Of a stretch of DNA of 64,000 nucleotides, positions 23,638 through 40,291 are shown in pieces. Each line of letters begins with the position of its first letter. Positions within the stretch are counted from its first letter, which is position 1. A program made the translations under genes and the position numbers. Below the pieces are notes generated by a model. That model searched no databases and had not been told where the DNA came from. It worked only from the letters and a program-made list of their open reading frames with translations. Origin of the DNA: Candidatus Omnitrophota bacterium (GTDB taxonomy: Bacteria; Omnitrophota; Gorgyraeia; Aquiviventales; Aquiviventaceae); contig JAHFGV010000005.1 of the NCBI GenBank assembly GCA_023247255.1, forward strand, positions 6,067-70,066, given 5' to 3'.

Positions 23638-23768
23638 ACGATAACCCTGAAGTGATCAGCTTAACAGTTGACGGCAGGAAAAATCCACGATACCATCATC
23701 CCCTCGACGAGAAGCTGGAAGATTTTCTCTCATTACACACTCCACCTTAAACATTACACAGCTTTTCA

Positions 23769-23842
23769 GGGGGCGTAGCTCAATTGGTTAGAGTGGCGGC
23801 CTGTCGAGCCGTAGGTTGCGGGTTCGAGCCCCGTCGCCCCCG
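23769..23842 (+). tRNA. tRNA-Asp (anticodon GTC)
   Basis: Manual cloverleaf: acceptor GGGGGCG/CGCCCCC, anticodon arm GCGGC-CTGTCGA-GCCGT, T arm GCGGG-TTCGAGC-CCCGT, discriminator G. Confidence 0.85.
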
Positions 23843-23889
23843 TTTTTGAACTGACGGAAGCCGTTATCTCGGAAGAGGTGACGGCTTCG

Positions 23890-24068
23890 TCGTCTTCTGG
23901 GATGAAAAAACGTAACCGGGTTGAAGCTGTTTTTATGATGATCCACAGCCAGCTCTTGTACGAAATTCTCAGCCGGTTGATCCATCGGACCGAGAAGTCG
24001 TGGAACGTGTAACCGCAGCGTTTACAGCGGTACCGTTTACCCACGATCCTTTGGTTTTTCAAGCACAC
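23890..24068 (-). pseudogene. N-terminal zinc-ribbon fragment of an IS1595/IS1-InsA-like transposase
   Basis: MCLKNQRIVGKRYRCKRCGYTFHDFSVRWINRLRISYKSWLWII. The remainder of the listed ORF is antisense of tRNA-Asp. Confidence 0.45.
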
Positions 24069-24101
24069 CAGCCGACCGGAGTTTGAGCACAGAAAACTGA
24101 T

Positions 24102-24121
24102 TGCGCAATAGGTCTATTGAA
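24102..24121 (+). repeat. 20-bp direct repeat, copy 2 (tgcgcaataggtctattgaa)
   Basis: Identical to 22179-22198. Confidence 0.5.
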
Positions 24122-24199
24122 GCCCGCGAGAGGGCTGCTCCATTGCGAGTCCTTCTCGTTCTCCTTGACGGTTGTGGCGCGTAGGCGTATTCTTCATGA

Positions 24200-24875
24200 G
24201 ATGGGTGACGAACCAAGAGCCTTCATGGGCCAATTCCTCTCTCGTATGGAGCCTTTCAGACGACTCAGCCAGGCTGAACGGCTACGGCTTGCTGCTGTCG
24301 CCCGTGAGAAACGCTATGACAAAGGCGACACCATCTTCCGCGCAGGTCAGCCAGCCGATGCCGTCTGCGTCGTCAGAGAAGGCCGCGTCCACTTGATGAA
24401 ATTTCTCGAAGGCGGGCAGGCGTCCACGACGTGCGTCATGACGCCCGGGGAAACGTTCTGTTGTCTGCCGGCGCTTGACGGAAAACCGTACCCCGTGGAT
24501 GCCGTCGCTGCAGTGGACTCCACGGTCATTTGCATTCCTACCAGCGCCTTCCATGAGCTCCTGCGCAAGAACCCCGCGTTCCTCCAAGACTCACTCTGCC
24601 TCTTCTGCGATCGGCTGCGCCAGGTCGAGGACAAGAGTTGCATGACCTACGACTCCGTCGAGCGGCGGCTGGCCAAATCACTCCTCATGCTCTCAAAGAA
24701 GTTCGGCCCGACGATTCCGCTGACCAAACAGGAGCTGGCCGAGCTGGCCAATACCACCCAGGAGACCACGATCCGAATTTTAAGCCAACTGAGCAAGCAA
24801 GGGGTGATTCGTTCCGCCCGCGGGAAAACCACGATCCTGCGCCCAGAGAAGCTCTCCGCCTTCCTCGACCCGTAA
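24200..24875 (+). CDS. Crp/Fnr-family transcriptional regulator
   Basis: cNMP-binding-like N-terminal domain. C-terminal HTH LAELANTTQETTIRILSQL. ATG at 24200. Confidence 0.8.
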
Positions 24876-24882
24876 GCCCTTC

Positions 24883-24896
24883 CTGACGGACGTCAT
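24883..24896. promoter_or_regulatory. Palindromic Crp/Fnr-type candidate operator CTGAC-GGAC-GTCAT
   Basis: Directly downstream of the Crp/Fnr gene. Member of a 4-site family. Confidence 0.35.
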
Positions 24897-25043
24897 AGAA
24901 ATCCTCTAGACCGCAAGGTATCGTTGCGGGTAGCCACGTCACAGAGGAGGTGACTCCGTCGGTTTTGCAAGACTACACTCATTGGACGACGAGGAGTTGC
25001 GGAAGCCTCCAAGGGAGATCCCACGCAACTCCATCATAATGAC

Positions 25044-25057
25044 ATGACGTACGTCAT
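25044..25057. promoter_or_regulatory. Palindromic candidate operator ATGAC-GTAC-GTCAT upstream of the hemerythrin-like gene
   Basis: Perfect 14-bp palindrome 41 bp upstream of ATG 25098. Confidence 0.4.
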
Positions 25058-25097
25058 AGAAGGATTCCCTGTTGAGCGCTACAGTTAGATATGAAAG

Positions 25098-25761
25098 GAG
25101 GCGCAGGATGAACGCGGTCGAGCGTCTGCGGCGGGATCACACGATCCTCAGAGCCAAGCTGAGCGTCTTGGAAGGGGCGCTGACCATGGGGTCGGAGACA
25201 TGGTTCGTGCTCCGGGAAATTTGCCACGCGCTCTCTCGCCAGCTCCAGGATCACATCAAACGTGAAGAGGAGCTGGTCACGGCGTGCAAAGAAGCACTGC
25301 CCGACGACGTGCTGGCCCATCTCACCGTCGGGCATAAGGACGAGCCTGCGTTGCTGCGGACGATCAACCGGCTGTTTATCGAGGAGCAGGGGCATTCTCT
25401 TGCGAGCATCAGGCCGTCGTTGACGAGGCTCATTCTCGGCCTGCGTGGTCACATGGACGAAGAGGAGGCCGAGTTGTTCCCGGCGATTGAAGGGGTCCTG
25501 AGCGACCATGAAGCAGCGGAGGTTCAAGAGCCGCTTCCGCCTGTCAGGCTGCGCGAGGAGATGACGGTCAACCATGTACTCCATACTTACCCGCAAACCA
25601 AACCACTCCTTGAACGGCTCTTCATCAACGTTCCGTATGAGGGCTACGACTGCCTAGATGAAGTCGCCTGGAGACGGGGAATGGACTGCTGCCAATTCAT
25701 CGGGCTGCTTGAGGAGGCGATCAGCGTGGCGTACCACTGTGATGAGATCGTAGCAGCATGA
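25098..25761 (+). CDS. Hemerythrin-like domain protein with a ScdA_N/DUF1858-like C-terminal domain
   Basis: RBS aaaggagg. HxxxE-type hemerythrin motifs in the N-terminal half. C-terminal YEGYDCLDEVAWRRGMDC. Confidence 0.55.
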
Positions 25762-25774
25762 GCTCGCTTTTGAC

Positions 25775-25803
25775 TTGACGAACCACGAGCTTGTTAATAA
25801 GAT
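25775..25803 (+). promoter_or_regulatory. Candidate sigma70 promoter (TTGACG - 17 nt - TAAGAT) upstream of hemA
   Basis: Spacing and hexamers read directly. Weak -10. Confidence 0.25.
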
Positions 25804-25848
25804 GAAACACGCGATGGGTCGACAGGGTGTTGTGAGGAGCCGTCCAGC

Positions 25849-26925
25849 GTGAACCTCCTCGTTGTGGGACTCAGTCATCGCACCGCGCCGCTCGAATTGC
25901 GCGAGCTGCTGGCGATCCCGTCACGCGAGTTGCCCGACACACTCGGCGATCTTCATACCCAGTTCGGGATCGATGAAGCGGTGATCCTGTCGACCTGCAA
26001 TCGGGTTGAGATCTACGTCATCACACCAGACCCCTCCGCAACCTCCTACGGCCTCATCGACTTCTTGAGTCATCGAAGCCACGTGGCCCCCGAGGCGTTC
26101 CAATCCCGGATGTATTGCCTAACGGGACCTGACGCGGTGAGACAGCTCTTTGGCGTCACTGCAGGGCTGGATTCGATGGTCCTTGGGGAGTCAGAAATCA
26201 CGGCCCAAGTGAAACAAGCCTATCGGGTGGCACAAACCGAAGAGACAACCGGGCTTGTGCTCCATCGCCTCTTCCAGAAAGCCTTGCACACGGCAAAGGT
26301 CATTCGATCCAAGACACGCTTAGGCTTTGGCCAAGCCTCCATCGGATCAATCGTTGTCGCGCTTGCCAGGAAACTCTTCGAAGGGCAACTTCAAAATTGC
26401 GAAGTCTTGCTTTGGGGAGCCGGAAAGGCGGCGGAATCGACTGCACGGTATCTCATCAAGAACGGGGTGGGCCAGTTGTGGATTGTCAACCGCACACCGC
26501 TCAAAGCGCGGGATCTTGCGACGCTTTGCCAAAGCGGCTGGCTCTCGTGGGAGCAGGCGTTGAAGCACCTCGCCCACGTCGATATTGCCATCGTCTGCAC
26601 CCAAGCGCCGCACTACGTCATCGATCAAGGCGACCTCGATGCGGTTGCGGCTCAGCGCGGCAGCCGCCCCCTGTGTCTCGTTGACCTGGCGGTGCCTCGC
26701 AACGTCGAGCCGTCCCTCGCGCGGCATCCCGGTGTGCGCCTCTACAACATCGATGATCTCCAAACCATTACGCAGGCTGCACAATCGCAGCGTGAACAGG
26801 AACGCGAACGCTCTGACGCGCTCATTCAGGAGCAGGTCAACCATTTCTCTCGTTGGTGGATGGCAGTTTCCCACAAGAAGGAGGATGTTCCATGCCGATC
26901 CGTCGAGGCCTTCTCGTCGGTGTGA
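25849..26925 (+). CDS. hemA: Glutamyl-tRNA reductase
   Basis: GLSHRTAPLELRE...STCNRVEIY...ESEITAQVKQAY. GTG start. Shortish C-terminus overlapping the next gene. Confidence 0.85.
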   Translation: MNLLVVGLSHRTAPLELRELLAIPSRELPDTLGDLHTQFGIDEAVILSTCNRVEIYVITPDPSATSYGLIDFLSHRSHVAPEAFQSRMYCLTGPDAVRQLFGVTAGLDSMVLGESEITAQVKQAYRVAQTEETTGLVLHRLFQKALHTAKVIRSKTRLGFGQASIGSIVVALARKLFEGQLQNCEVLLWGAGKAAESTARYLIKNGVGQLWIVNRTPLKARDLATLCQSGWLSWEQALKHLAHVDIAIVCTQAPHYVIDQGDLDAVAAQRGSRPLCLVDLAVPRNVEPSLARHPGVRLYNIDDLQTITQAAQSQREQERERSDALIQEQVNHFSRWWMAVSHKKEDVPCRSVEAFSSV

Positions 26926-28118
26926 GTCTCGTCGCGGCGCTTACGCTCGGAGAATCAGCGTGGGCAACGATCGAGAACCTCAAAAGCTACAAGGCAGCCT
27001 ATCCCGATAAAGATCCCAAGGCCTATTCGTGCAAGGCCTGCCACGAGGGCCTCATCGGGAAGAAAGACAACCTCAACGCCTATGGTCTCACCTTGCAGAA
27101 GTTCAAAGTGGATGCCGGGGCGAAGAAATTGACCGAAGAAGATTTTCGGGCGTTCGAGGCTGCGGATGCTGATGGGGATGGCGCCTCCAATCTTGATGAG
27201 CTGGACGCGGGCACTGATCTGAATGATCCCACGTCCGTGCCGGAGGGCGCTGGGCAAACGCCAGAAAAAAAAGAAGAAAGCCCAGGCACTGAGCAGCAGA
27301 CAAGCCCTCCAGGCGGCGCGTCGCAACTGAATCCAGGGACACTGAAACAGTTGCAGGCCTACCTGGAGGAGCAGATCGTCCCAGACGTTCAAGCGGCGCC
27401 AGAGGAATCGTCAGTGTCTAGGCGGCATGACGACAAAACAGCGTCCAACGCCAAATCCTCCCAACCCGAACAGGCTGAGTACGTGGGGATGGAGACCTGC
27501 GCGATGTGTCATAACAAGCAGCACCAGGAATTTCTCCACTCAACCCATGCCAGGATCGCAATCCCCGGAGAGACCAAGGCGCAAGGTTGTGAGACCTGTC
27601 ATGGGCCCGGCAGTCTGCACGTTGCTGCCGGTGGCGGTCGTGGCGTCGGTGGGATTATCAATCCGAAGAAGGATCCCGGCGCCTGTTTTGCCTGTCACCT
27701 CGACAAGAAAGCGGAATTTCGTTTGCCCCATCACCATCCCGTGATGGAAGGCAAGATGAGTTGTGCGGATTGCCACAATCCCCACGGTGAGGATGTGCGG
27801 CCGTGGTCAGCGACGACGCTGAAGGATATCAATGAGGCCTGCTTTCGGTGCCACAAGGAACAGCGCGGCCCATTCGCCTGGGAACACGAGGCGCTGCGGG
27901 AAGGTTGCACGACCTGTCACAAGGTTCATGGCTCGATTCACGAGAAGATGCTGCTCGTCCGGGACAACAACTTGTGCCTGCGCTGCCATACGCAGACGAA
28001 CTTCCCGACCATTGGCAGGTCCAGCCATGCTGGCCGGCTTCCCCAAGGGACGTGCTTTAGCGCGGGATGCCATACGGCGGTTCACGGATCGAACTTCGAC
28101 GATCACCTCCGCTACTAA
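26892..28118 (+). CDS. Periplasmic multiheme cytochrome c (about 8-9 CxxCH; MtrA/DmsE-like candidate) with an N-terminal acidic DxDxDG-repeat extension
   Basis: RBS aaggagga. Signal peptide. CxxCH x8 plus CFSAGCH. N-terminal region DADGDGASNLDELDAGTDLNDP. Confidence 0.8.
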   Translation: MPIRRGLLVGVSLVAALTLGESAWATIENLKSYKAAYPDKDPKAYSCKACHEGLIGKKDNLNAYGLTLQKFKVDAGAKKLTEEDFRAFEAADADGDGASNLDELDAGTDLNDPTSVPEGAGQTPEKKEESPGTEQQTSPPGGASQLNPGTLKQLQAYLEEQIVPDVQAAPEESSVSRRHDDKTASNAKSSQPEQAEYVGMETCAMCHNKQHQEFLHSTHARIAIPGETKAQGCETCHGPGSLHVAAGGGRGVGGIINPKKDPGACFACHLDKKAEFRLPHHHPVMEGKMSCADCHNPHGEDVRPWSATTLKDINEACFRCHKEQRGPFAWEHEALREGCTTCHKVHGSIHEKMLLVRDNNLCLRCHTQTNFPTIGRSSHAGRLPQGTCFSAGCHTAVHGSNFDDHLRY

Positions 28119-28130
28119 AGGAGACGCCTC

Positions 28131-30191
28131 ATGCGCGCGATGCTTTGTTGGACGTTGGGAGGAATTCTGGGTGTGAGTCTATGGTTACCCTCACGCCTTG
28201 CTGAGGCTGCGGACCCGGAGGTTTCCCTTTCCCTGGAGCCCATCCGTTATGCGTTCGTCAATGGCGACCGGGATAAGTTTAGCGCCCATCATTGGATGAA
28301 AGACAACTACGTCGGAGGCGTGAAGGAGTTTTCCTTCGACTACGCCCTTGCGGATGGAACGCAGCTCTCCGCAGAAAGCCACGCGCTCATTGATCAAAAC
28401 GATTTGGGCGCTGACGTCTCACTTAAGAAAGACTCACTGGGCTTTTTCAATCTCGGCTACTCCGAATTCCGCAAGTATTACGATAAAACCGGTGGTGTGT
28501 ACTATCCGTTTACCACCCTTCGCAGCAACGATACGTTTAAGGACCTTGCTCTGGACATCGGTCACCTCAGCCTTGAAAGCGGGTTGACCCTGGAAGGCTG
28601 GCCTGACCTGACCTTCGAGTACGAGCGCGAATTCAAGGATGGGGCGAAATCGCGCCTGAGCTGGGTCCCAACGAAGGAAGGGACCACCACCCGGAATATC
28701 GGTCCCTCGTGGCAAGATCTTGATGAGGTCGTCGACTCATTTGGCCTCAAAGCCGATCATGAGATCGCAGGATTCACTCTCAAGGGCGAGCAGCGATGGG
28801 AGTTCGTGCGGACCGAAACCTTTCGGGAGGAGAAATTTCTCGCGACAACAGGTGTCGCAGCAGACACCAAGATTCGACGGCAGGACCAAGCCCCGCAAGC
28901 CACCTTGATGACGACGACGTTAGGCGGGGAGCGTTCGTTCTTCGCTGACAAGATATTTACATCGATGGGCTACCATTTCGCCCACATGGATAATCGGGAA
29001 TTCGAGACAATCGTCGAGTCGAACGCGGCTGGAACCGTAACAAACTTTTCGAATCCGAAGCAGATCCGTAATGCGCGCGCCGATAACGACTACGATACCC
29101 ATACCTGGGTAGGGAACTTCATGATCAACCCCTGGAACTGGCTGAGCCTCGGGACCAAACTCAAGGCTGAAGCGATTCACCGGGAGAGCGACTCAAGCTA
29201 TCCGGCGGATGCCTCGCCGAACTCCACGGGCGGCAGCACCCCGAATGGGGCGATCGACTCTCTCGTGGCCAGTCTCAACAAGAACAAGGCCGTTCGCTGG
29301 GGGGAAGGAGTGTCCCTGCGGTTTTTTGGCATCCCACGCACCGCTCTCTACACTGATTTGGAGTTGGAGCAATCGCGAGTAATCTTGGCAGAGGATCGGA
29401 AAGATTTAGTGACGATCCCGAATGTCAACGAGGATTTCAGCCGCTACACTGTCACCAACGTCCGACGAGGGACGTGGACATTGGGCGGCCATGTCGCGCC
29501 GGGGTCGTTCCTCGATCTGACGACGCAGGTCCGGCGACGTGTCAACAACAACGACTACGATGACCAACGGGAAACCGTCGCCTCAGGGACGGCGCTGTCC
29601 GCATTCGTCGATATGCAGAACATCCATACGGATGAGTTCACCACGCGGGCCACGCTGCGGCCCTCTCGGTGGTTTCGCCCCTCGTTCCGGTACCAGTTCC
29701 GTAACGATAAATATGCGACTCGGACGGAAGCGCAGGATACCGTAAAGACGGGTATGCTCTCGAACATCTACACTTTTGACGTAACGGCACAACCGTTGCG
29801 AGACCTCACGACCACCGCCTCCTTCTCGCGTCAGACGGCCGTCACCACCACTCCCGCGGGTTCGGCGTCGTCAGCAAACGTTCCTGGGTTTCGCGCAAAT
29901 GTCAACACGTGGCTTTTCAGCACCGACTACAGCCCAAGGGCGAATGTGAGTATCACCAACGCGCTGCTCTATTCGCGCGCAAGAAACTTCAACGATTTTA
30001 CCGCCAGCGGGATGCCGTTCGGGACCTCGTTTGATCGGCTGGATGTGACCACAGGTCTGAAGTGGGCGCTGACCGAGGATACGTCTGTTGGCACCGAATA
30101 CGCATTCTACTCGTATCTGCCCAATTCGCTGACCGAAGTGGGCGACTACCATGCCCACGTCATCTGGCTCGAGTTGTCGAAGCAGTTTTGA
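28131..30191 (+). CDS. Large outer-membrane beta-barrel protein (candidate MtrB/PioB-type porin partner of the upstream cytochrome)
   Basis: 686 aa. Signal peptide. Alternating amphipathic beta-strand pattern. C-terminal aromatic residue (..LELSKQF). Confidence 0.55.
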   Translation: MRAMLCWTLGGILGVSLWLPSRLAEAADPEVSLSLEPIRYAFVNGDRDKFSAHHWMKDNYVGGVKEFSFDYALADGTQLSAESHALIDQNDLGADVSLKKDSLGFFNLGYSEFRKYYDKTGGVYYPFTTLRSNDTFKDLALDIGHLSLESGLTLEGWPDLTFEYEREFKDGAKSRLSWVPTKEGTTTRNIGPSWQDLDEVVDSFGLKADHEIAGFTLKGEQRWEFVRTETFREEKFLATTGVAADTKIRRQDQAPQATLMTTTLGGERSFFADKIFTSMGYHFAHMDNREFETIVESNAAGTVTNFSNPKQIRNARADNDYDTHTWVGNFMINPWNWLSLGTKLKAEAIHRESDSSYPADASPNSTGGSTPNGAIDSLVASLNKNKAVRWGEGVSLRFFGIPRTALYTDLELEQSRVILAEDRKDLVTIPNVNEDFSRYTVTNVRRGTWTLGGHVAPGSFLDLTTQVRRRVNNNDYDDQRETVASGTALSAFVDMQNIHTDEFTTRATLRPSRWFRPSFRYQFRNDKYATRTEAQDTVKTGMLSNIYTFDVTAQPLRDLTTTASFSRQTAVTTTPAGSASSANVPGFRANVNTWLFSTDYSPRANVSITNALLYSRARNFNDFTASGMPFGTSFDRLDVTTGLKWALTEDTSVGTEYAFYSYLPNSLTEVGDYHAHVIWLELSKQF

Positions 30192-30634
30192 TGTGTCCTC
30201 GTCAGCCCCTCAGTCGCCGGGTTTTCCTGGCGCTTTGCCTCAGGGGTGGTGGGCTTGCCCTGCTTGGGGCTGCGCTCTATCCCATCCTGCGGTATCTCTA
30301 TCCTCCCCGAGGCGTTGAATCCTCCGTCTCCAGCGTTGCGGCGGCGAAGGTGGGGGATCTGGCGACGAATACCGCGAAGATCTTCCGGTTCGGCAGTCGG
30401 CCCGGCCTCCTCATTCGTTCCCCCCAAGGCGAGCTCAAAGCCTTCTCGGCGGTGTGCACCCACCTCAACTGCACCGTTCAGTACGACAGCGACGCGAGCA
30501 TCATCTGGTGCGCCTGCCACAACGGCAAGTATGACTTAAACGGACAGGTCATCTCCGGCCCTCCCCCACGACCACTCGATGCCTACCAGGTGAACGTCCG
30601 CGGAGAAGACATCATCGTCTCCAAGACGTCCTAG
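30191..30634 (+). CDS. Rieske [2Fe-2S] protein with a Tat signal
   Basis: RRVFLAL twin-arginine motif. CTHLNC...CACHNG Rieske boxes. TGATG overlap with the porin stop. Confidence 0.8.
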   Translation: MCPRQPLSRRVFLALCLRGGGLALLGAALYPILRYLYPPRGVESSVSSVAAAKVGDLATNTAKIFRFGSRPGLLIRSPQGELKAFSAVCTHLNCTVQYDSDASIIWCACHNGKYDLNGQVISGPPPRPLDAYQVNVRGEDIIVSKTS

Positions 30635-30638
30635 CCTG

Positions 30639-31709
30639 ATGGGGTACTTCGAGCACCTACGCGCATTCTTGCATGAGCGCTACCGGCTGGGTGGCCTAGT
30701 GGATCTCGCCACGCATAAGACGGTCCCCATCCACCGCCACAGCGTCTGGTACTACTGGGGCGGCATGACGCTCGTGCTCATCGGCATCCAGATCATCAGC
30801 GGTGTGCTGCTGTTGCTGTACTACCGCCCATCAGCCCAGGAAGCCTTCGAGTCGGTTCGCTTCCTCATGACGCGGGTGCAATTCGGGTGGCTGGTGCGCT
30901 CCGTGCACGCGTGGGCGGCGAACCTGGCGATCTTCTGCGCGATGGTGCATCTGGCCAGCGTCTTTTTCCTGAAGGCGTATCGGCCACCCCGTGAACTGAC
31001 CTGGGTGACCGGGGTTGTGTTGTTGTTTCTGCTATTTGGTTTCGGATTTACCGGCTACCTCCTGCCGTGGAATACGCTGGCGTTTTTCGCCACCAAGGTC
31101 GGCACGGAAATCGCGGGGATTGTGCCCGTCGTCGGGCCTGTCGTTCAAATCTTTCTGCGCGGTGGAAGCGACGTTGGGGATGTGACGATCACGCGGTTCT
31201 TTTGGCTTCATGTCGCAATCCTGCCAATCGGCCTGATGACACTCTTAAGCCTTCATCTGCTCATGATCCAGCTCCAGGGCATGAGCAAACCGCCTTGGGT
31301 TAAGAGCAATCGGTCCATGCCGTTCTTTCCGAATTTTTTCCTGCGCGATCTGGTTGCCTGGTCACTCATACTGGGGATAGTGCTGTGTGTGAGCGTGCAC
31401 TGGCCCGCGACGCTCGGCGAAAAGGCCGATCCGTTCGCTCCGACACCCGTGGGCATCCAACCGGAATGGTATTTTCTCTGGATGTTTCAGACGCTCAAGA
31501 TTTTCCCTGGCCACCTGTTTGGTCTCGAGGGTGAGTTAGTCGCGGTGGGATTGACCGGACTGGCGGGTCTTGCGCTGCTACTCGTTCCATGGCTGGATCG
31601 CCCCGCCCGACGGGAGCAATCATCCTGGCTGGTATGGGCTGTTGGCGTGTTGGGCATTGCCTATGTCGTCGGGATGACCGGCTACGCGCTATGGGTGAAA
31701 CCTCACTGA
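30639..31709 (+). CDS. Cytochrome b (b6-type with fused subunit IV-like C-terminus) of a bc-type complex
   Basis: 356 aa. YYWGGMTLVLIGIQIISGVLL, His-containing TM helices. PEWY-like motif (QPEWYFLW). Confidence 0.85.
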   Translation: MGYFEHLRAFLHERYRLGGLVDLATHKTVPIHRHSVWYYWGGMTLVLIGIQIISGVLLLLYYRPSAQEAFESVRFLMTRVQFGWLVRSVHAWAANLAIFCAMVHLASVFFLKAYRPPRELTWVTGVVLLFLLFGFGFTGYLLPWNTLAFFATKVGTEIAGIVPVVGPVVQIFLRGGSDVGDVTITRFFWLHVAILPIGLMTLLSLHLLMIQLQGMSKPPWVKSNRSMPFFPNFFLRDLVAWSLILGIVLCVSVHWPATLGEKADPFAPTPVGIQPEWYFLWMFQTLKIFPGHLFGLEGELVAVGLTGLAGLALLLVPWLDRPARREQSSWLVWAVGVLGIAYVVGMTGYALWVKPH

Positions 31710-32995
31710 TGACAGGGTATCGTCTACGGGTGGCACTCGGACTTCTGCTGTGCCCTGGCTTTGTGTGGTCGGCTGAGAAGCCGAATAGTTGTGTCGAGTG
31801 CCACAAGCAGGTGGAGGGCCAAACGCGAGGGCCGGCCACACTGGCTGCAGAGGACGTGCATTTCCAGCGAGGCTTGTCCTGCGTGGATTGCCATGGCGGC
31901 GATCCAACAGCGATGGATCCTCAAGCCGCGATGGACCCGGCTAAAGGGTTCCTCGGTCGCCCGAGGCGGGAGCAGATTCCCCAGTTTTGCGCCCGGTGCC
32001 ACGCGGATCCGGCCACCATGCGCAAGTACAATCCCAATCTTCCGACTGACCAATACGCGAAGTACCTGACCAGTCAGCACGGGAAGCGCTTCAGTGTTGG
32101 CGATGCCGATGTGCCGGTCTGCATCAGTTGCCACGAGGCGCACGGCATCCGCTCGAAAAAAGACCCAGCCTCGCCGGTCTACCCGACGAACATCCCCGGA
32201 ACCTGCGCGAGCTGCCACAGCGACGCGTCGATCATGGACAAACACGGCTTGCCGGTGAACCAGCACTGGGACTACTCGCAGAGCGTCCACGGCCAGGCGC
32301 TGTTGTTCCGTGGCGATCGTGCGGCTCCCCATTGCGCGAGCTGCCACGGATCGCACGAAGCGGCCAAACCTAGGACGGTCGCAATCGGCAACGTCTGCGC
32401 TCAGTGCCATAGCCTCACGCGCGATCTGTTTGCAAAGAGTCCCCACAAGGCCGCGCATGAAGCCTTAGGGCTTCCGGAGTGCGAGGTCTGCCACGGCAAT
32501 CACCTGATCCGCAAGCCAAGCGACGAGATGCTTGGGACGGGACAAGATGCGGTGTGTGTCAGTTGTCACGAGCCAGGGTCGACCGGCTACGTCACCGCGC
32601 AGCAGATGCGCAGCGCCATCGAGCAACTGAAAACCCACATGGCCAGCGCTGAGGCAGCCGTCAGGCACGCAGCGGAGTTGGGCATGGATGTCGGTGACGC
32701 GGAATTTGAGCTTCGCGAGGCGATGACCCAACTCACGCAAGAGCGCACCTACGTCCACTCTTTCTCCGCCGCAACCATGGAACCCATTGCCGAGGAGGGA
32801 ACTCACCACGCCCTGCGGGCCGAGGGGCAAGCCCGCCAGGCGATCCGTGAGTTTCATTTCCGCCGTCAGGGCTTGTGGGTCACCCTGATCATTCTCGCCC
32901 TCGTGGTTTCTGGACTCCTTCTGAAGATTCGAGACTTGGAGCGATCGGACTCGACAGACAAGATGGACGACACATCCCCTCGCGACTCCTCGTAA
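31709..32995 (+). CDS. Multiheme cytochrome c (about 9 CxxCH) with a C-terminal TM anchor; third subunit of the bc complex
   Basis: ATG overlaps the cyt b stop (TGATG). CVECH, CVDCH, CARCH, CISCH, CASCH x2, CAQCH, CEVCH, CVSCH. C-terminal hydrophobic helix. Confidence 0.8.
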   Translation: MTGYRLRVALGLLLCPGFVWSAEKPNSCVECHKQVEGQTRGPATLAAEDVHFQRGLSCVDCHGGDPTAMDPQAAMDPAKGFLGRPRREQIPQFCARCHADPATMRKYNPNLPTDQYAKYLTSQHGKRFSVGDADVPVCISCHEAHGIRSKKDPASPVYPTNIPGTCASCHSDASIMDKHGLPVNQHWDYSQSVHGQALLFRGDRAAPHCASCHGSHEAAKPRTVAIGNVCAQCHSLTRDLFAKSPHKAAHEALGLPECEVCHGNHLIRKPSDEMLGTGQDAVCVSCHEPGSTGYVTAQQMRSAIEQLKTHMASAEAAVRHAAELGMDVGDAEFELREAMTQLTQERTYVHSFSAATMEPIAEEGTHHALRAEGQARQAIREFHFRRQGLWVTLIILALVVSGLLLKIRDLERSDSTDKMDDTSPRDSS

Positions 32996-33032
32996 AATCT
33001 GCCATTTCCGGCTATGATATCTGCGGAGCATC

Positions 33033-34550
33033 ATGAACCACACATCGATGCCAAAACCCCCCAGCCTCTTGCGCAACCCGCTGAGCTTTTTCGGCCTCGC
33101 CGTCGCCATCACGAGCACGGCGTTTGGCCTGCCCATGATGTTCGTCGACATGTTCAGTCGACGCACGCATCCGTATCTTGCTGTGCTCGTTTATCTCGTG
33201 CTGCCGTTCGTTGCAGCAGGCGGCGTCGGCTTAGTCCTGCTTGGAGCATTGTGGGAACGCCGTCGAAGACGCCGACGGCCTGGCATGGTAGTGCCACCCC
33301 TGCCATCCATCGATCTCAATCGAAGCGCCCACCAGATTGCTGTGGCTGGAGCACTCACAACGTTCATGACTATTGTGGCCATGCTCTCCGTGACCGGCTA
33401 CCGGGCGTACCACTTTACGGAGTCGGTCAAATTCTGCGGCCTGGTCTGTCACCAGGTGATGAAACCGGAGTATACGGCGTATCAGTATTCTCCGCATGCG
33501 CGCGTGGCCTGCACCCAGTGCCATGTCGGGCCTGGTGCAAGCTGGTTCGTGCGCTCAAAGATCACAGGAGCGTATCAGGTTTACGCGGTTACATTCAACA
33601 AGTACCCGCGCCCGATTCCCACACCCGTGAAGAGCCTGCGTCCGGCGCAAGAAACTTGCGAGCAATGCCACTGGCCGGCGAAGTTTTTTGGCGCGCAGCA
33701 GAAAACCTTCACGCACTACATGGCGGATGAGCACAACAGCCCGTGGCAGATTCAGATGCTGCTGAAAATCGGCGGCGGCGATCCGTCGGTTGGCGCTCCT
33801 GCGGGCATTCACTGGCACATGAACATCAAGAACGATATTTATTACATTGCCTCAGATGAGCAGCGGGAAACCATTCCGTGGGTGCGCGTGGTCGAGCCGC
33901 AGGGACGCATCGCCGAATATATGTCGATGGAAAGTCCGCTCTCGCCGGAGCAGATCGTAAAGAGCGAAGTGCGCCGCATGGACTGCGTGGATTGCCACAA
34001 CCGGCCCTCCCACATCTTTCGACCGCCGGATCGTGCGGTGGAGGAGGCCTTCGAGACCGGCCGGCTAGAGCGGTCCCTGCCGTATCTGAAGCGCGAAGCC
34101 ATAAGGTTGTTGGCGCAAGAGTACCCCTCGGAGGAGCAGGCGTTATCAGCCATCCTGAAAGGCTTGGCCGAGTTCTACCAGAAGGACTATCCAGAGGTGT
34201 ATCGCGAACAGGCAGTCGCTATTCAACAGGCCACAGCTGAGTTGCAACGCATCTATTCGAGGAATTTCTTTCCCGAGATGCGCGCCGATTGGCGCGCCCA
34301 TCCCAACCACATGGGCCATCTAAATGCCGAAGGCTGCTTCCGCTGCCACGATGGGCTGCACAAAAACCGCGAGGGCAAGGTGCTAACCAAAGACTGTACC
34401 GCCTGTCACACGATCTTGGCCCAGGGGCCACCTGAGGAGGTGGCGCAAGCCAAGCTTGAAGCGCAGCCGTTTCGCCACCCGGTCGACGTGGGGATGGACG
34501 TGACGGAATTTAAGTGCAGCCAGTGTCATACCGGCACGAGCGGTCTCTAG
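33033..34550 (+). CDS. Membrane-anchored heptaheme cytochrome c of the NapC/NirT/ImcH-like type
   Basis: 505 aa. 2-3 N-terminal TM helices. Seven CxxCH motifs. Size and architecture resemble the Geobacter inner-membrane cytochrome ImcH. Confidence 0.6.
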   Translation: MNHTSMPKPPSLLRNPLSFFGLAVAITSTAFGLPMMFVDMFSRRTHPYLAVLVYLVLPFVAAGGVGLVLLGALWERRRRRRRPGMVVPPLPSIDLNRSAHQIAVAGALTTFMTIVAMLSVTGYRAYHFTESVKFCGLVCHQVMKPEYTAYQYSPHARVACTQCHVGPGASWFVRSKITGAYQVYAVTFNKYPRPIPTPVKSLRPAQETCEQCHWPAKFFGAQQKTFTHYMADEHNSPWQIQMLLKIGGGDPSVGAPAGIHWHMNIKNDIYYIASDEQRETIPWVRVVEPQGRIAEYMSMESPLSPEQIVKSEVRRMDCVDCHNRPSHIFRPPDRAVEEAFETGRLERSLPYLKREAIRLLAQEYPSEEQALSAILKGLAEFYQKDYPEVYREQAVAIQQATAELQRIYSRNFFPEMRADWRAHPNHMGHLNAEGCFRCHDGLHKNREGKVLTKDCTACHTILAQGPPEEVAQAKLEAQPFRHPVDVGMDVTEFKCSQCHTGTSGL

Positions 34551-34627
34551 GCCTGCCCGCCTGTCGTCCAAAAGTGTGATCTGGGTCATAGTTCGTCTCC
34601 CTGCGTTCTGAGAAGATTACTTAGGCG

Positions 34628-36183
34628 ATGGGGGAGGCTCTGACGAGAAACGGCGGACGGATACGGCGCGTAGCGCTCTGCGCGCTCTTCACGTGCTGGA
34701 CCTGGGCGCCGCGGGCCATGGGAGAGGGCAGCGTCTCTCCAGCCGCGCAAGAGATCGACAACGCTGCCTGTCTGGCTTGCCATGGTGATCCCTCGGCAAT
34801 CCGCTTTGTGGACCACGCGAAGTTCGAGGCTTCCGTCCATGGGAGTTTTTCCTGCACTACCTGCCACGCGGATGTCGTCACCATTCCCCATGACGTGCCG
34901 CTGGAGTCGATCAGTCAGTCGCAGATCCCCCTCACGTGCGGCCAGTGCCATGAAGACATCAAGGCTGCCTACCAGCGGAGTATCCACGCTCAGGCGGTCG
35001 CCGCCGGCAAGCGCCATGCGCCCGTCTGCACCGACTGCCATGGTGAGCACTATGTGGCCCCGGTGAAAACGGAGGCGTCGAAAGTGTTTCCCTCGCACAT
35101 CCCGCAGACGTGCGCACAGTGCCACGCGGCGGAGCGCATCGTTACGAAGTATCGGTTGCCGGCGTACGTGGTCGATACGTACATGAGCAGCTTCCACGGC
35201 CTCATACACCAACTGGGATCCGTGACGGCCGCGAACTGCGCCTCCTGCCACGGGGCGCATGACATTCTCCCCGCGAACGACGAGCGTTCCTCGGTCAATC
35301 CGAAGAACCTGCCGAAAACCTGTGGCTCCTGCCATCCGGGCGTCGGCGCGTTCGTCGCACAGGGAAAGATTCACTCCGGCACACAGCCCGGAGCGGAACA
35401 TCCTGCGGTGACATTCGTTCGCCGGTTCTACCTCATCCTCATCGGTTTGGTCATTGGGGGCATGCTGATTCACAACGGTCTCGATTTCCGCAAAAAACTC
35501 TCGATCCATTACCAACGGATGGCCGCCAGCAGCGCGGTACAACGGATGAGTCTTAATGAGCGCCTTCAACATGGCGTGCTCTTGATCGCCTTTGCGACGC
35601 TCGCCTATACCGGATTTGCGTTAAAGTTCCCGCATGTCTGGTGGGCACGCCCCTTCATGGGCCGCGTCGACTGGCGCCGCCTGGGGCATCGGGGAGCGGC
35701 GGTCGTCTTCTGCCTGCTCGCCGGCTACCACCTCTGGTTCATGACGTGCACGAAACGGGGGCGGAGCGAGTTGCGCGCCTTGCGACCCGAACGAGCCGAC
35801 TTCACGCACCTGAGACGGATGCTCGGCTTCTATCTGGGTAGGAGCCGGGAGCAGCCGCGCGCGGCGCGGTACAGCTACGTGGAGAAAGCGGAGTATTGGG
35901 CGCGGTCTGGGGTTCAGTCATCATGGTGCTCACCGGCGGTCTGATGACCTGGCAGAATTGGACATTGCGCTTCCTGCCCAAGTGGGCGTTCGATGTTTTT
36001 ATCACGGTGCATTTTTATGAAGCACTCCTCGCATGCTTGGCGATCCTTATTTGGCACCTCTACTTCGTCATGTACGATCCCGATGAATACCCGATGAAGT
36101 GGACGTGGATCAGCGGCAAGGCCTCACCCACCGACGAGGCACATCGGCATCCAGGCGACGCCGAGGAAGGCAATCCAGGCTGA
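34628..36183 (+). CDS. Multiheme cytochrome c (7 CxxCH) fused to a diheme b-type membrane cytochrome domain (CbcL-like); apparent +/-1 frameshift near 35895-35945
   Basis: ORF 34628..35944 continues as ORF 35896..36183 in another frame. The C-terminal half has 4 TM helices with conserved His (formate dehydrogenase-gamma / Ni-Fe hydrogenase cyt b-like). Confidence 0.6.
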
Positions 36184-36269
36184 ATCCTCTAAGACTTAAC
36201 GCCGTGTTGGCGCAAAAACATACCTCGGAGGCGCAAACGTCCTCTGTATGATAAAATAGAAACCTTGCC

Positions 36270-38051
36270 ATGACACCCTTCGTCCGATTCCTTGGATCGC
36301 TGAGCATCGCGGTGCCGCTGCTGATCGTGATTGCCCTGGTGCTCGCATGGGGCACCATCTATGAAACCCGCTTTGGCACGGCGGCGGTTCAGCGCTTTGT
36401 CTACCACGCGTGGTGGTTTCAAGCGCTCCTCGGCTTTCTGGCGATCAACCTCGCCGTGGCTGCGCTCGAGCGCTATCCGTGGCAGCGTCGACACCTGCCG
36501 TTTGTCCTGGCCCACATCGGCATCATCCTCATCCTGATTGGGGGGATTATCGGAGCCCGATTCGGCATCGAGGGTCAGATGATCATTCCGGAAGCTCAGG
36601 CCGAGCGCGTCCTCGAGCAGCCAGGCAATGTCCTTGTAGTGCGCCAGCCAAACCCGGGTCTATCTATCATCATCCCCACGCAGTTTGAAACGCAGGCCTG
36701 GGTGCATGAGCCGAACGCGACCTTTCCCGTGACTCTCGATGGCCGGACGATTGCGCTCACCGTCGACCGCTACTATCCCGACGCGGTGACGGATGAAGAA
36801 ATCACAAGCGGTGGCGCTGAGGACAATCCGGCTCTCCACATGCTGCTTACGCACAACGAGCAGCAGGATGCGGTGTGGCTCATGAGCAGGGACTCTGAGC
36901 GTTTTGGTATGGGCTGGGGTGAGGCGCACGTGCTCTTCCTTGAACCAAGAACTGCTTCTGAAGTCGATCGGCTTACTGGGGCTGGGCGCTCACCTGGCGT
37001 CGCGTCTGCGCGAGGCGTGATCGTTATCCGCCTACCCGGGATGCATGCGCCACGCGAGATTCCGGTTCCCGATGAGCGCAACCGATCCGTCGACGTCACA
37101 GGCACGCCCTATCAGATCATCTTCAAGGATTACTTTCCCGATTTTGCGATTACCGAACAGGGGATCGTGAGCCGCTCGCTTGAGGCCAATAACCCTGCGG
37201 TTTCTTTCATCATCACCGGACCCGAGGGAACCGATGCGTATTTGCTGTTTGCGCTCCATCCCGATTTTCAAACGATCCATGGCTTCGAACATAAGATCGA
37301 CGCCCAGGTGAGTTATACCCACACCGCCAGCGCTGCGCTGCCTCCCAATTGTATCGGGCTCATCCGTGCACCATCAGGAACCTTAATCGGTATCTTGACC
37401 GGCAGCGGGACCGATCGATCCGTGATCAATCCGCTGGAACTTGGCAAACGGTACACCCACCCTTCGCTCGGCTATCAGTTTGAAGTCGCCACGTACTATC
37501 CCCGTGCGGTTCTCACGCAGCACGTCACCAACCGAGGAGATGAAATCAAAGCCGAAACGCTTCATCTCGTGGGACGTGAAGGTGATCAGAGCGCAGAGGC
37601 GTGGTTGGGTTTGCGCGGCTCGGCAGAATTCGCGTTGGGAAAGGAGCCGGTTACGATTGAGTACCGACCGGCCCGATGGGAGCTGCCGTTTACCATCAAG
37701 CTCTTGGACTTTCGCAAGATCGACTATCCAGGAACGCAGATGGCCTCGGCGTTTGAAAGCGACGTGGAGCTCACCGATTCTCAGCGGGGTGTCATCCTGA
37801 TGCGCAAGATTACGATGAACAACCCCCTGCGCTACCGCGGGTTTAGCGTGTACCAATCCAGCTACATCGAAGGCCCGACGGAAACCACAGTGCTCTCGGT
37901 GCGCAATGATCCAGGAACCCCATTTGTTTATGCGGGGTTCATCATTGTGATCGCCGGCGTCGTCAGTATGTTTGTGCTCGGCACCCCCTCCACGACCGCA
38001 ACCCCTCCGCCTTCGATCCGGCGAGTACGCAGAAGGAGCCGCTCTTCATGA
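36270..38051 (+). CDS. ccsB: Cytochrome c biogenesis protein CcsB/ResB (System II)
   Basis: 593 aa. N-terminal TMs, large periplasmic domain, C-terminal TM. Confidence 0.8.
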   Translation: MTPFVRFLGSLSIAVPLLIVIALVLAWGTIYETRFGTAAVQRFVYHAWWFQALLGFLAINLAVAALERYPWQRRHLPFVLAHIGIILILIGGIIGARFGIEGQMIIPEAQAERVLEQPGNVLVVRQPNPGLSIIIPTQFETQAWVHEPNATFPVTLDGRTIALTVDRYYPDAVTDEEITSGGAEDNPALHMLLTHNEQQDAVWLMSRDSERFGMGWGEAHVLFLEPRTASEVDRLTGAGRSPGVASARGVIVIRLPGMHAPREIPVPDERNRSVDVTGTPYQIIFKDYFPDFAITEQGIVSRSLEANNPAVSFIITGPEGTDAYLLFALHPDFQTIHGFEHKIDAQVSYTHTASAALPPNCIGLIRAPSGTLIGILTGSGTDRSVINPLELGKRYTHPSLGYQFEVATYYPRAVLTQHVTNRGDEIKAETLHLVGREGDQSAEAWLGLRGSAEFALGKEPVTIEYRPARWELPFTIKLLDFRKIDYPGTQMASAFESDVELTDSQRGVILMRKITMNNPLRYRGFSVYQSSYIEGPTETTVLSVRNDPGTPFVYAGFIIVIAGVVSMFVLGTPSTTATPPPSIRRVRRRSRSS

Positions 38052-39709
38052 AACGCGCCTTTATGACGATTATGACGATGGCGTTATTGTTCGGAGCCTT
38101 GGCGAGATTTATGAGCGTATTCGCAGATCAGCCCGTTGCCCTGCCGCGCGAGGCGCTCGAGACCATACGTCGCATGGCCATCCAACACAATGGACGCAAC
38201 AAACCCTTCGACAGCTTTGCGCGAGAAACCCTCCGACTCATCACCGGCTCAGCGCGCGTGGGAAATGAAGATCCTGTCGAAACCATCTTGACCCTCATGG
38301 CCAGTCCCGACCATGGGCAGCAGTTGCTGCTTGTGTCGGTTCCATTTATCCCTCTGCGAAAGGCTCTGGGCATGGATCCCAAGGCGACGCAGGTGTCCTA
38401 CAACGATTTGGTTGCGACACGCAAGCTCATGCGGCTGCTGCCCCCGATTGTCCAAAAGCAGCAGCGCGAAGAGAAACTTTCGATGCTGGAAGAAGAGACG
38501 ATGGATGTCTTCCAGCGATTTGCCACCCTGAGCACTCTGCTCGAGCAAAAGCTCAACCTCGTGCCTCCACCTGTTGGATCTGCAGAGCGTGTGTGGCAGC
38601 TTGTTGAGGAGCCGTCGGGCTATGCGCCAGCGCAGCAAGAGACCATTCGTACCGCATGGTCCGGGCTGATCGGTGCGGTGCAAGCTGGGCGGGGCGATGC
38701 GGTGATTACCTCAGCGCGTCATGCGGCAGATGCGCTGCGAGATCTGAGCCCTTCTCGCTATCCTCCTCGGTGGCGATTAGCGTTCGAGGTGTTCTACAAC
38801 CACGTCGCGCCATTTCGAATCGCCCAAGGGTTCTATCTGCTCTCAGCGATCCTGTTGTTTCTGAGCCTTGGCGCATTGAAGAAATTCCGGCCAGCGCTTT
38901 TGGGATTTGTCGCTTGCTGCTTCGCGTTTCTCGCGCATGGATCAGGTATCCTGATGCGCGTTGTTCTGGGTGAGCGTCCGCCGGTCTCGAATTTTTTTGA
39001 GACCACGCTGTGGCTGCCGTTCGTCGCAGTCGCCATTGCGCTCATCCTGGAACGTGTGTACCGGACTCGTTACATCGCCCTGGCTGCGGCGATCCTTGCG
39101 ACAATCACCCTGGTTCTCGCGGATCATCTGCCGCTGGACTCGAGCATCTCTCCGGTGGTCGCCGTGCTCCACAGCAATCTCTGGTTGACGATTCACGTGT
39201 TGACCATCGTGGCGAGCTACGGCGCGCTGACCCTGGCGATTGTGCTGGCGCACATGTATGGGGGGATGTACCTGAGTCGCCGCACGAGCGGCTCAACGTT
39301 AGATGCGTTGGGGACATTTCTCTATCGCGTCATCCAAGTCGGCGTCGTGTTATTGGCGGCGGGGATCATGCTGGGCGCCGTGTGGGCCAACGCCTCTTGG
39401 GGCCGTTACTGGGGCTGGGATCCGAAAGAGACCTGGGCGTTGATTACCCTCATCTGGTTCCTGGCGCTGCTGCACGGACGCTTCGCCGGATGGATCAGCG
39501 GTGTTGGCGTAGCCCTGTGCACCGTCGGCGGATTTTTTCTGCTGCTGATGACCTACTACGGTGTCAGCTTCTATCTCGTCGGTCTGCACAGCTATGCCGG
39601 TGCTCATGCCAAGCCCTTGCCCCCAGTTCTCATCGCCTACCTCATCGCTGAACTGGCGTTCATCATCGTGGTGAGCGTCTCAGCCATACTCCGCAGGCGG
39701 CCAGCGTAG
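38048..39709 (+). CDS. ccsA: Cytochrome c biogenesis protein CcsA/ResC (System II) with an N-terminal extension
   Basis: WGRYWGWDPKETW heme-handling WWD motif. Confidence 0.85.
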   Translation: MKRAFMTIMTMALLFGALARFMSVFADQPVALPREALETIRRMAIQHNGRNKPFDSFARETLRLITGSARVGNEDPVETILTLMASPDHGQQLLLVSVPFIPLRKALGMDPKATQVSYNDLVATRKLMRLLPPIVQKQQREEKLSMLEEETMDVFQRFATLSTLLEQKLNLVPPPVGSAERVWQLVEEPSGYAPAQQETIRTAWSGLIGAVQAGRGDAVITSARHAADALRDLSPSRYPPRWRLAFEVFYNHVAPFRIAQGFYLLSAILLFLSLGALKKFRPALLGFVACCFAFLAHGSGILMRVVLGERPPVSNFFETTLWLPFVAVAIALILERVYRTRYIALAAAILATITLVLADHLPLDSSISPVVAVLHSNLWLTIHVLTIVASYGALTLAIVLAHMYGGMYLSRRTSGSTLDALGTFLYRVIQVGVVLLAAGIMLGAVWANASWGRYWGWDPKETWALITLIWFLALLHGRFAGWISGVGVALCTVGGFFLLLMTYYGVSFYLVGLHSYAGAHAKPLPPVLIAYLIAELAFIIVVSVSAILRRRPA

Positions 39710-39820
39710 CGTTCTCGCCTTCTTCCCTAAGGGATCATGCGCCCAAGGAATTCTCATCTCCTCTTTATCCTTGACCTCCTCTACGGCACATCTTAGTTGT
39801 CCAGCCGACAAAAGGTCTCC

Positions 39821-40213: not shown

Positions 40214-40291
40214 CAGTTACGACTGACGCCTTCCAAGTCTTCTTGCACCTGCTGTAGTGAATCCATCTGCTGCAGCGAATCTCGCGAAAGG

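Follow-up and report, generated by a model that had tools for sequence, protein, structure and literature searches.

A conserved MtrA-type cytochrome and MtrB-like barrel pair in a candidate trans-envelope electron-transfer operon of Omnitrophota

Members of the Omnitrophota occur widely in groundwater and sediments, and none is known in culture. The phylum is poorly understood, largely ultra-small and possibly host-associated, and to our knowledge its energy metabolism is known from coarse gene surveys only. The stretch of DNA analysed here, 64,000 nucleotides of contig JAHFGV010000005.1 from a Candidatus Omnitrophota bacterium (hereafter the window), carries a dense run of multihaem cytochrome genes and raises the question of whether such a cell could exchange electrons with its surroundings. 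A preliminary description of the window had proposed that seven consecutive genes on the + strand form a dedicated electron-conduit module for metal oxidation, metal reduction or extracellular electron uptake. That reading is supported by the homology of one cytochrome to MtrA, by the MtrB-like fold of the barrel encoded next to it, by the architecture of ImcH- and CbcL-type proteins and by synteny across related loci. In the preferred interpretation, to which a probability of roughly 0.6 is given, the block is a single operon encoding an electron path across the whole envelope together with its assembly genes, most likely for outward anaerobic respiration.

The seven co-directional genes are all present at 26892-36183 in the list of open reading frames (ORFs) and their translations. 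They belong to an uninterrupted series of + strand genes that runs from hemA through CcsA (25849-39709) and is preceded by two further genes on the same strand:

24117-24875, + strand: Crp/Fnr-family regulator with a probable internal Met start; its FixK/Fnr-type NCBIfam matches are all below cut-off
25072-25761, + strand: hemerythrin-domain protein (PF01814, 44 bits), a possible O2/NO/iron sensor
25849-26925, + strand: hemA, glutamyl-tRNA reductase (TIGR01035, 314 bits against a cut-off of 209)
26892-28118, + strand: MHC1, multihaem cytochrome of the MtrA/DmsE type; 408 residues, Sec signal peptide, eight CxxCH motifs and one CX4CH
28131-30191, + strand: predicted outer-membrane beta-barrel, MtrB-like by fold; 686 residues, signal peptide, C-terminus ...SKQF
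30191-30634, + strand: Rieske 2Fe-2S subunit (PF00355, 50.9 bits) with a twin-arginine translocation (Tat) motif, SRRVFL, and a transmembrane anchor at residues 11-29
30639-31709, + strand: cytochrome b with fused b6-like and subunit-IV-like parts (PF00033, 165 bits; PF00032, 36 bits)
31709-32995, + strand: MHC2, nine-haem cytochrome c (nine CxxCH) with a C-terminal membrane anchor (transmembrane helix 389-407)
33033-34550, + strand: ImcH-type inner-membrane multihaem quinol dehydrogenase; 505 residues, three N-terminal transmembrane helices, one CX3CH and six CxxCH
34628-36183, + strand: CbcL/MtoC/MtrH-type protein with seven CxxCH and a cytochrome b561/FdnI/HydC-like domain; reading frame split
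36270-38051, + strand: ResB/Ccs1, System II cytochrome c biogenesis (PF05140, 107.6 bits)
38048-39709, + strand: CcsA (TIGRFAM name CcsB), System II haem lyase subunit (TIGR03144, 159 bits; the cut-off of 188 is not reached)

The placement of hemA upstream and of System II biogenesis downstream, proposed beforehand, is borne out by the TIGR01035, PF05140 and TIGR03144 matches. The successive junctions from hemA through CcsA measure -34, +12, -1, +4, -1, +37, +77, +86 and -4 nt; MHC1 starts within hemA with an overlap of 34 nt, several junctions are TGATG-type overlaps and CcsA overlaps the ResB stop codon by 4 nt. Such overlapping or near-abutting junctions indicate translational coupling, i.e. 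co-translation of the block. The four cytochrome genes together account for 30 CxxCH motifs, and one further CxxCH, in a 315-residue ORF, was found in the rest of the 64-kb window in a rough non-overlapping ORF list; the NxrC-like gene at 43767-45365, which that list omits, has two. The density of haem motifs in the block is not due to chance. Judged by its gene spacing, the block appears to be a real, tightly packed operon.

The MtrA-like identity proposed for MHC1 stands. Its closest solved homologue in a phmmer search of the PDB is MtrA of the Shewanella MtrCAB complex (6r2q_A, E 4.2e-32), neither NrfA nor HAO, and the alignment spans MtrA residues 61-325 in two stretches (61-167 and 177-325) that take in the C-terminal, surface-proximal haem. 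The sole other solved match is NrfB, an electron-transfer subunit. In NCBIfam the best match is the DmsE family TIGR03508, with 161.9 bits under a curated cut-off of 192.2 and a best stretch at profile positions 114-257 of 258. The ten CxxCH of the MtrA/DmsE decahaem family are absent, the core of MHC1 being made of seven CxxCH and one CX4CH. This core was followed through 36 loci that encode a barrel relative in species-representative genomes: it is conserved over ~250-285 residues, and its terminal CX4CH (C-F-S-A-G-C-H) is kept in 33 of the 36, one of the remaining three ending in masked sequence. The CX4CH aligns in place of the last CxxCH of MtrA, whose haem lies at the cell-surface end of MtrCAB. 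By this correspondence, the family-specific CX4CH haem is predicted to be the surface-exposed, substrate-facing one.

In the sub-lineage of the window, MHC1 also has an N-terminal extension that comprises a ninth haem, an acidic TSP3-like stretch (DADGDGASNLDELDAGTDLNDP) and a Pro/Glu/Ser-rich linker. Within residues 1-200 (26892-27500), the low-complexity linker takes up ~80 residues, the acidic stretch resembles a Ca-binding TSP3 repeat, and the extension weakly matches the 'GEGP motif dihaem protein' (NF041762) at the N-terminus of the latter. No significant family was found for this N-terminal domain in Pfam, where the TSP3-like match has an E-value of 0.04. A catalytic, NrfA/HAO-type reading of the cytochromes was rejected: their Nrf-type matches are weak and concern the electron-transfer subunits NrfB and NrfH only.

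The 686-residue protein encoded after MHC1 was assigned by its structure. Pfam and NCBIfam scans return no family for it, and PF11854 (MtrB_PioB) gives no match even at E <= 1. Its AlphaFold2 model, built on a 47-sequence alignment, reaches a mean predicted local distance difference test score (pLDDT) of 90 and a predicted template modelling score (pTM) of 0.79; it consists of beta structure throughout, counts 26 long strands and lacks a plug domain, and a few short extra strands make 28 possible. In a Foldseek search of the PDB, MtrB (6r2q_B) comes first by a wide margin (E 4.7e-13, template modelling (TM) scores 0.63/0.67), the TonB-dependent transporters listed having TM scores of 0.37-0.47 to the model. 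The model thus confidently predicts a large outer-membrane beta-barrel of ~26 strands without a plug, and not a propeller, the alternative that structure prediction and a strand count were to decide. A 12-nt gap after the cytochrome gene, a C-terminal phenylalanine, the modelled plug-less barrel and MtrB as top match agree with the proposed gene order of MtrAB, PioAB and MtoAB. By the available structural criteria the modelled protein is MtrB-like, yet it is no recognisable sequence member of MtrB/PioB; in the absence of a sequence match, its link to MtrB is one of fold only. The barrel family is sizeable and unannotated, since an exhaustive profile search returned 892 cluster representatives at E <= 1e-3 and 378 at E <= 1e-30. 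Its named homologues come from Candidatus Omnitrophica/Omnitrophota metagenome-assembled genomes (MAGs) or from third-party annotation (TPA) bins; these bins are labelled Planctomycetales, Planctomycetia or uncultured bacterium, and two homologues carry other phylum labels. Weak DUF2490 matches were seen in three members of the family.

Three inner-membrane modules follow the pair. The first is the complex of a Tat-exported Rieske protein, a cytochrome b and an anchored nine-haem cytochrome that had been named beforehand, and the motif SRRVFL, the PF00355, PF00033 and PF00032 matches, nine CxxCH and helix 389-407 agree with it. The three Pfam models score above their cut-offs and the equivalog NCBIfam models below theirs: the Rieske protein is PetC-like, and the cytochrome b obtains 222 bits as cytochrome b6 and 210 bits as ExtP. 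A Rieske protein with a cytochrome b that has both N- and C-terminal domains gives the pair a bc/b6f-type composition, and at this sub-cut-off level it can be called b6f-like and ExtP-like. MHC2, whose start codon overlaps the cytochrome b stop codon, holds the place of a cytochrome c1/f subunit and in related loci accompanies the genes of the Rieske protein and cytochrome b; against the PDB it has a marginal match only (E 0.007), from which no specific relative can be named.

The second module is the ImcH-like protein. Published criteria for ImcH are a length of 495-519 residues, three N-terminal transmembrane helices, a CX3CH beside the third, six CxxCH and a NapC/NirT-like segment (PMC6295460). 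The 505-residue protein has all of these features, with helices at 20-38, 51-69 and 102-120, the CX3CH at 135 and CxxCH at 160, 209, 318, 435, 455 and 495. It scores 35.4 bits on NapC/NirT (PF03264, cut-off 24.1), and its residues 112-236 match NrfH (2j7a_C, E 1.4e-4). Its best named relatives are from Omnitrophica. It is 77% identical to P0159, a protein of 505 residues whose source name is readable as A3I71_03, and the ImcH table of the same survey lists A3I71_03655 from Omnitrophica WOR_2 at 505 residues (PMC6295460). Name prefix and length of P0159 fit this entry, whose motif and helix positions lie within one residue of those of the window protein. The earlier ImcH-like assignment of 33033-34550 thus appears sound at the level of the defining architecture.

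The third module, the CbcL-like gene, is present as two ORFs in the assembly, at 34628-35944 (438 residues) and 35896-36183 (95 residues). A 1-bp deletion near 35903, located against the in-frame orthologues of loci L005, L008 and L010, splits the frame: the window reads GCGCGGTC, and GCGCTGGTC would bring back ...EYWALVWGSVIM... Other assemblies, from the same or a near-identical organism, contain an intact and otherwise identical protein of 518 residues (P0126), so that an assembly error or a strain variant is the likely origin of the break, which is no feature of the system. P0126 scores 51.1 bits on cytochrome b561 (PF01292, cut-off 30.1), and the CbcL-like protein matches FdnI (1kqf_C, E 1.2e-4). 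An N-terminal multihaem c domain is fused to a C-terminal FdnI/HydC-like dihaem b domain, which is the defining architecture of the CbcL/MtoC/MtrH type. Seven haem motifs are found in the window protein versus eleven in close Omnitrophota relatives; the CbcL family accepts 3-23 (PMC6295460). The initial CbcL-like claim consequently holds for the domain fusion and the seven CxxCH and fails for the intact frame.

Do these genes belong together beyond the window? In the 36 related loci, upstream DNA is readable in 34, and the MtrA-type cytochrome lies directly upstream of the barrel in all 34. The modules around this pair vary. An ImcH-like gene, the commonest inner-membrane partner, is found within 10 kb in ~20 loci and is the only such partner in the simplest ones, directly beside the pair and accompanied by ccs genes. 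The Rieske/cytochrome b/nine-haem set occurs in ~13 loci, a CbcL-like gene in seven and a module resembling alternative complex III (ACIII) in two. The ACIII-like module stands between the barrel and Rieske genes (13244-18237 in L014, 4680-9650 in L003) and comprises a five-haem protein, a Tat-signal protein of ~755 residues and a membrane subunit of ~455 residues, recognised by size and gene order only. In L012, a 791-residue ORF with a Tat-type motif and a four-haem protein directly follow the barrel.

The order of the window from the Crp-like gene to CcsA is found with small omissions in L005, L008 and L010. It is kept as far as they go by L002, which has no CbcL-like gene, and by L006, whose contig ends in the ImcH-like gene; identity is 49-84%. 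ResB adjoins the pair in ~14 related loci and hemA lies upstream of it in 12. A Crp-like gene is encoded upstream in L005, L006, L008, L017, L021, L023 and L035, joined in L005 and L006 by a hemerythrin gene. Synteny is conserved in more than 30 related loci and supports a functional unit. A constant cytochrome-barrel pair with variable modules is the pattern expected of a constant exit with interchangeable entries, and it agrees with the prediction for a trans-envelope electron path, in which quinone-linked modules can be exchanged around a constant outer-membrane pair.

In the proposed path, the Rieske/cytochrome b complex with its nine-haem cytochrome, the ImcH-type protein and the CbcL-type protein would be three alternative quinol/quinone:cytochrome c oxidoreductases, and whichever of them is expressed would link the quinone pool to the periplasmic haems. 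From the homology and the gene pairing we infer that the barrel encloses its partner cytochrome. The eight-haem MtrA-type core of MHC1 would be threaded through the ~26-strand barrel, haems 1-8 forming the outer-membrane wire, and electrons would cross the periplasm, pass along this core inside the barrel and arrive at the last, CX4CH haem at the cell surface. hemA, whose product performs the first step of haem synthesis, and ResB/CcsA would supply the haem and attach it. In the lineage of the window, the long flexible linker of MHC1 probably makes its N-terminal haem domain a tethered relay from the inner-membrane modules to the conduit. This role is supported by the homology to MtrA, which puts the N-terminus in the periplasm, and by the recurrence of monohaem modules in other loci.

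Such modules take two further forms. A class-I monohaem cytochrome of 92-125 residues is encoded right after the barrel in seven loci with a short MHC1, where it holds the position of MtoD in the Mto pathway:

11998-12336 in L011: monohaem cytochrome, with a weak sub-threshold SoxA/TsdA-type Pfam match
3486-3860 in L013: monohaem cytochrome
3264-3545 in L016: monohaem cytochrome
12056-12433 in L018: monohaem cytochrome
12021-12299 in L019: monohaem cytochrome
6110-6424 in L028: monohaem cytochrome
12056-12388 in L031: monohaem cytochrome

None of the 11 loci with the MHC1 extension encodes this downstream cytochrome. In distant barrel relatives of ~790-915 residues, one or two PSCyt1 monohaem domains are fused at the N-terminus of the barrel (P0349, P0351, P0352, P0360, P0367, P0370, P0376, P0393 and P0405; locus L038, 1057-3429), and P0351 is preceded by an MtrA-like Paired_CXXCH cytochrome of 263 residues. 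These fusions would represent a cytochrome-porin on an MtrB-sized barrel beside an MtrA-like partner, for which no description was found. All three arrangements may put a single haem at the periplasmic mouth of the barrel, a recurring arrangement and no proven common part. If the conduit is a device for electron uptake or for exchange between cells, an unlikely reading considered below, the monohaem module in its tethered, fused or free form would be a periplasmic relay of a new kind.

Several points weigh against the proposed path. A profile of 47 barrel-family members finds nothing among all PDB sequences at E <= 10, PF11854 matches one of the 47 members (E 3.5e-7) and structural likeness is common among large barrels. 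The three monohaem modules are not detectably homologous to one another (BLAST E 0.005 or worse, in a tiny database). A scan of 23500-40500 for promoters and terminators gave counts no better than those of shuffled sequence and thus provides no operon boundaries. The host organism is uncultured. Finally, no extracellular cytochrome of the MtrC, OmcA or OmcB type is encoded in the cluster or the 64-kb window, and in known systems a two-component conduit without surface cytochrome goes with Fe(II) oxidisers (MtoAB, PioAB) more often than with mineral reducers.

This last point bears on the direction of the flow. Such conduits are reversible and the sequence does not settle it. Outward transfer to extracellular acceptors such as Fe(III)/Mn(IV) minerals, humics or a partner cell is given slightly better than even odds. 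In its favour, ImcH, the commonest partner of the pair, has been implicated so far only in quinol oxidation in Fe(III) reducers, and a Crp/Fnr-type regulator is conserved upstream. ImcH and CbcL are both quinol oxidases of Fe(III) reducers and serve acceptors of different potential in Geobacter (PMC6295460).

The same conduit could also run inward, which is the less likely direction. As in MtoAB- or PioAB-like uptake, the surface haem would then oxidise Fe(II), a mineral, a cathode-like surface or a partner cell, and electrons would flow downhill to a periplasmic terminal reductase, e.g. the Nxr/Nar-like enzyme encoded further downstream, or else uphill through the Rieske/cytochrome b complex and the CbcL/MtoC-type enzyme into the quinone pool. 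The limitation of the system to two components, with no MtrC- or OmcB-like surface cytochrome, recalls MtoAB and PioAB; a Rieske/cytochrome b complex lies within the operon, a class-I monohaem cytochrome takes the MtoD position in seven related loci, and a type II enzyme of the dimethyl sulfoxide (DMSO) reductase family with a dihaem-c entry is encoded 4 kb downstream. The CbcL/MtoC/MtrH family is known from oxidisers as well as reducers (PMC6295460), and FeGenie surveys place Omnitrophica among the taxa with iron-oxidation and iron-reduction genes (PMC8478452). However, the module most often beside the pair is of the ImcH type, with its role in quinol oxidation. Nxr-like genes occur within 10 kb of the pair in no other related locus, so their link to it is not conserved, and no carbon-fixation or oxidase genes can be tied to the cluster within the window. 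That the two-component conduit of Omnitrophota is an electron-uptake or cell-to-cell exchange device, drawing on Fe(II) minerals or partner cells, is considered unlikely. If true, the conduit could feed the Nxr/Nar-like enzyme, which would amount to nitrate-dependent extracellular iron or electron oxidation outside Proteobacteria.

It is improbable that the pair feeds a secreted or surface terminal reductase that acts on a soluble substrate, e.g. an oxyanion, in the manner of DmsEF or ExtI, or that the barrel is a solute channel and the cytochromes are periplasmic only. DmsE is the best NCBIfam match of MHC1, molybdoenzyme genes lie near the pair in the window, and the Tat-motif ORF of 791 residues and four-haem protein of L012 come directly after the barrel. 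The cytochrome b obtains its 210 bits on the ExtP model, and the Geobacter ext cluster, with porin, cytochromes and Rieske/cytochrome b, is linked to selenite and tellurite reduction (PMC5877670). Nevertheless, the ExtP and ExtM matches are under their cut-offs, the association with a Mo-enzyme is not conserved across loci and the adjacency of cytochrome and barrel is invariant whereas that of reductase genes is not. A chance co-location of respiratory cytochrome genes with no shared function, for which the variation of inner-membrane modules between loci and the lack of a clear promoter or terminator signal bounding the operon could be invoked, is very improbable in view of the overlapping or near-abutting junctions throughout the block, the order kept in L005, L008 and L010 and in part in L002 and L006 at 49-84% identity, and the invariant cytochrome-barrel pair.

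The conduit resembles several known systems without coinciding with any. As in MtrAB of Shewanella, MtoAB of Sideroxydans and PioAB of Rhodopseudomonas, a multihaem cytochrome gene lies directly 5' of a large outer-membrane barrel gene; MHC1 is a sequence homologue of MtrA, and the barrel resembles MtrB in its fold, its size and its number of strands. The lack of an MtrC-type surface cytochrome alongside is shared with MtoAB and PioAB. Unlike in MtrAB, the wire has eight haems rather than ten, the last haem motif is CX4CH instead of CxxCH, in the window lineage a long linker carries an additional haem domain at the N-terminus, neither the MtrB_PioB Pfam model nor the PDB profile search recognises the barrel, and the host phylum is Omnitrophota. 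The ImcH-like protein shares with Geobacter ImcH its length class, three transmembrane helices, CX3CH plus six CxxCH and NapC/NirT-like segment, and the CbcL-like protein shares with Geobacter CbcL the multihaem c domain and FdnI/HydC-like dihaem b domain, with seven haem motifs versus nine. In contrast to Geobacter, where imcH and cbcL are scattered, an ImcH-type gene lies within 10 kb of the pair here and in ~20 related loci. DmsEF are MtrAB paralogues that feed an extracellular DMSO reductase in Shewanella. The window recalls them in the DmsE family as top match of MHC1 and in a DMSO-reductase-family enzyme encoded nearby, but here the reductase genes are 4 kb off, beyond feoB and dtxR, are not conserved and belong to the Nxr/Nar-like type II class.

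Two Geobacter systems are also comparable. The Pcc of Geobacter sulfurreducens (OmaB/OmbB/OmcB) forms a conduit across the outer membrane from an eight-haem periplasmic cytochrome and a porin-like barrel (PMC4245776), and the window pair is similarly composed. It differs in that the block encodes no 12-haem lipoprotein cytochrome of the outer surface and in that MHC1 is clearly of the MtrA/DmsE type by sequence. The extHIJKLMNOPQS cluster encodes the ExtI porin, the ExtKL/M/N/S cytochromes, the ExtO Rieske protein and the ExtP/Q cytochrome b (PMC5877670). The window likewise combines a porin, multihaem cytochromes and a Rieske/cytochrome b set whose cytochrome b is ExtP-like (210 bits). The ext cluster, however, has no MtrA-type cytochrome paired with its porin and no ImcH or CbcL genes, and the ExtP and ExtM scores are sub-cut-off here.

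Parts of the system had been noticed in this phylum. FeGenie 'metal-reducing cytochromes' were reported in 10 of 23 Omnitrophia species (Seymour et al. 2023), Omnitrophica were found among iron-cycling MAGs (Casar et al. 2021; PMC8478452), and three ImcH and three CbcL homologues were listed in Omnitrophica together with the statement that no mtrAB or mtoAB is adjacent to imcH (Zhong and Shi 2018; PMC6295460). This statement does not hold for Omnitrophota once the barrel is recognised by structure; a barrel family missed by domain databases is a plausible reason why the survey saw no imcH beside an mtrAB-type pair. Full-text searches, which do not reach most subscription journals, brought up no account of the barrel family, of the CX4CH signature or of the operon. 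The suggestion that the operon is undescribed holds to this extent and must be tempered by the surveys of ImcH, CbcL and metal-reducing cytochromes in Omnitrophica and by the ext cluster, which combines similar parts. Porin-cytochrome conduits, ImcH and CbcL are all known already and no concept is overturned.

For the physiology of Omnitrophota, the block offers a concrete, conserved and testable gene set for electron exchange with the outside. For the annotation of extracellular electron transfer, it provides a barrel family that current domain databases miss, and the predicted working end of the wire bears an atypical haem that is specific to the family. The varied quinone modules around a constant outer-membrane exit constitute a natural experiment in pathway assembly, and the cytochrome-barrel genes are parts for heterologous testing in Shewanella or E. 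coli.

The periplasmic Nxr/Nar-like enzyme announced next to the block was confirmed as a Tat-exported member of the type II DMSO-reductase family, 4 kb downstream of the operon. The genes of this region are:

40196-43254: feoB (above cut-off) and a DtxR/MntR-type metalloregulator, between the cytochrome and Nxr-like operons
43767-45365: gamma subunit (haem b, EB_dh) with two fused N-terminal class-I cytochrome c domains
45368-51057: molybdoenzyme genes, near the pair in the window
48814-49521: DUF2490 protein of 235 residues with a signal peptide, an unusual insertion between the alpha-like and beta-like genes

The long ORF of the Mo-subunit (45197-48820) overlaps the upstream gene, and its likely start is a Met at ~45368, followed by the Tat motif MYLTRRQFLK, which places the enzyme in the periplasm. 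Through its fused c domains, the gamma subunit would let electrons enter or leave the enzyme directly by c-type haem. Clustering at 90% identity groups the NxrB-like protein with 'nitrate oxidoreductase subunit beta [Omnitrophica WOR_2 bacterium ...]'. A Nitrospirota or Desulfuromonadia origin of the window is rejected, most named homologues of its proteins belonging to Omnitrophica/Omnitrophota MAGs, and the organism is assigned to the WOR_2 lineage of Omnitrophota. In the upstream half of the window (3900-19023), apparent NADH dehydrogenase membrane subunits and an F-type ATP synthase were recognised by ORF size and N-terminal sequence only. The GC content across the block is 0.57-0.62, not distinct from that of the remaining window, and a DDE_Tnp_4 transposase gene lies at 21135-22136, ~4.7 kb upstream of the operon.

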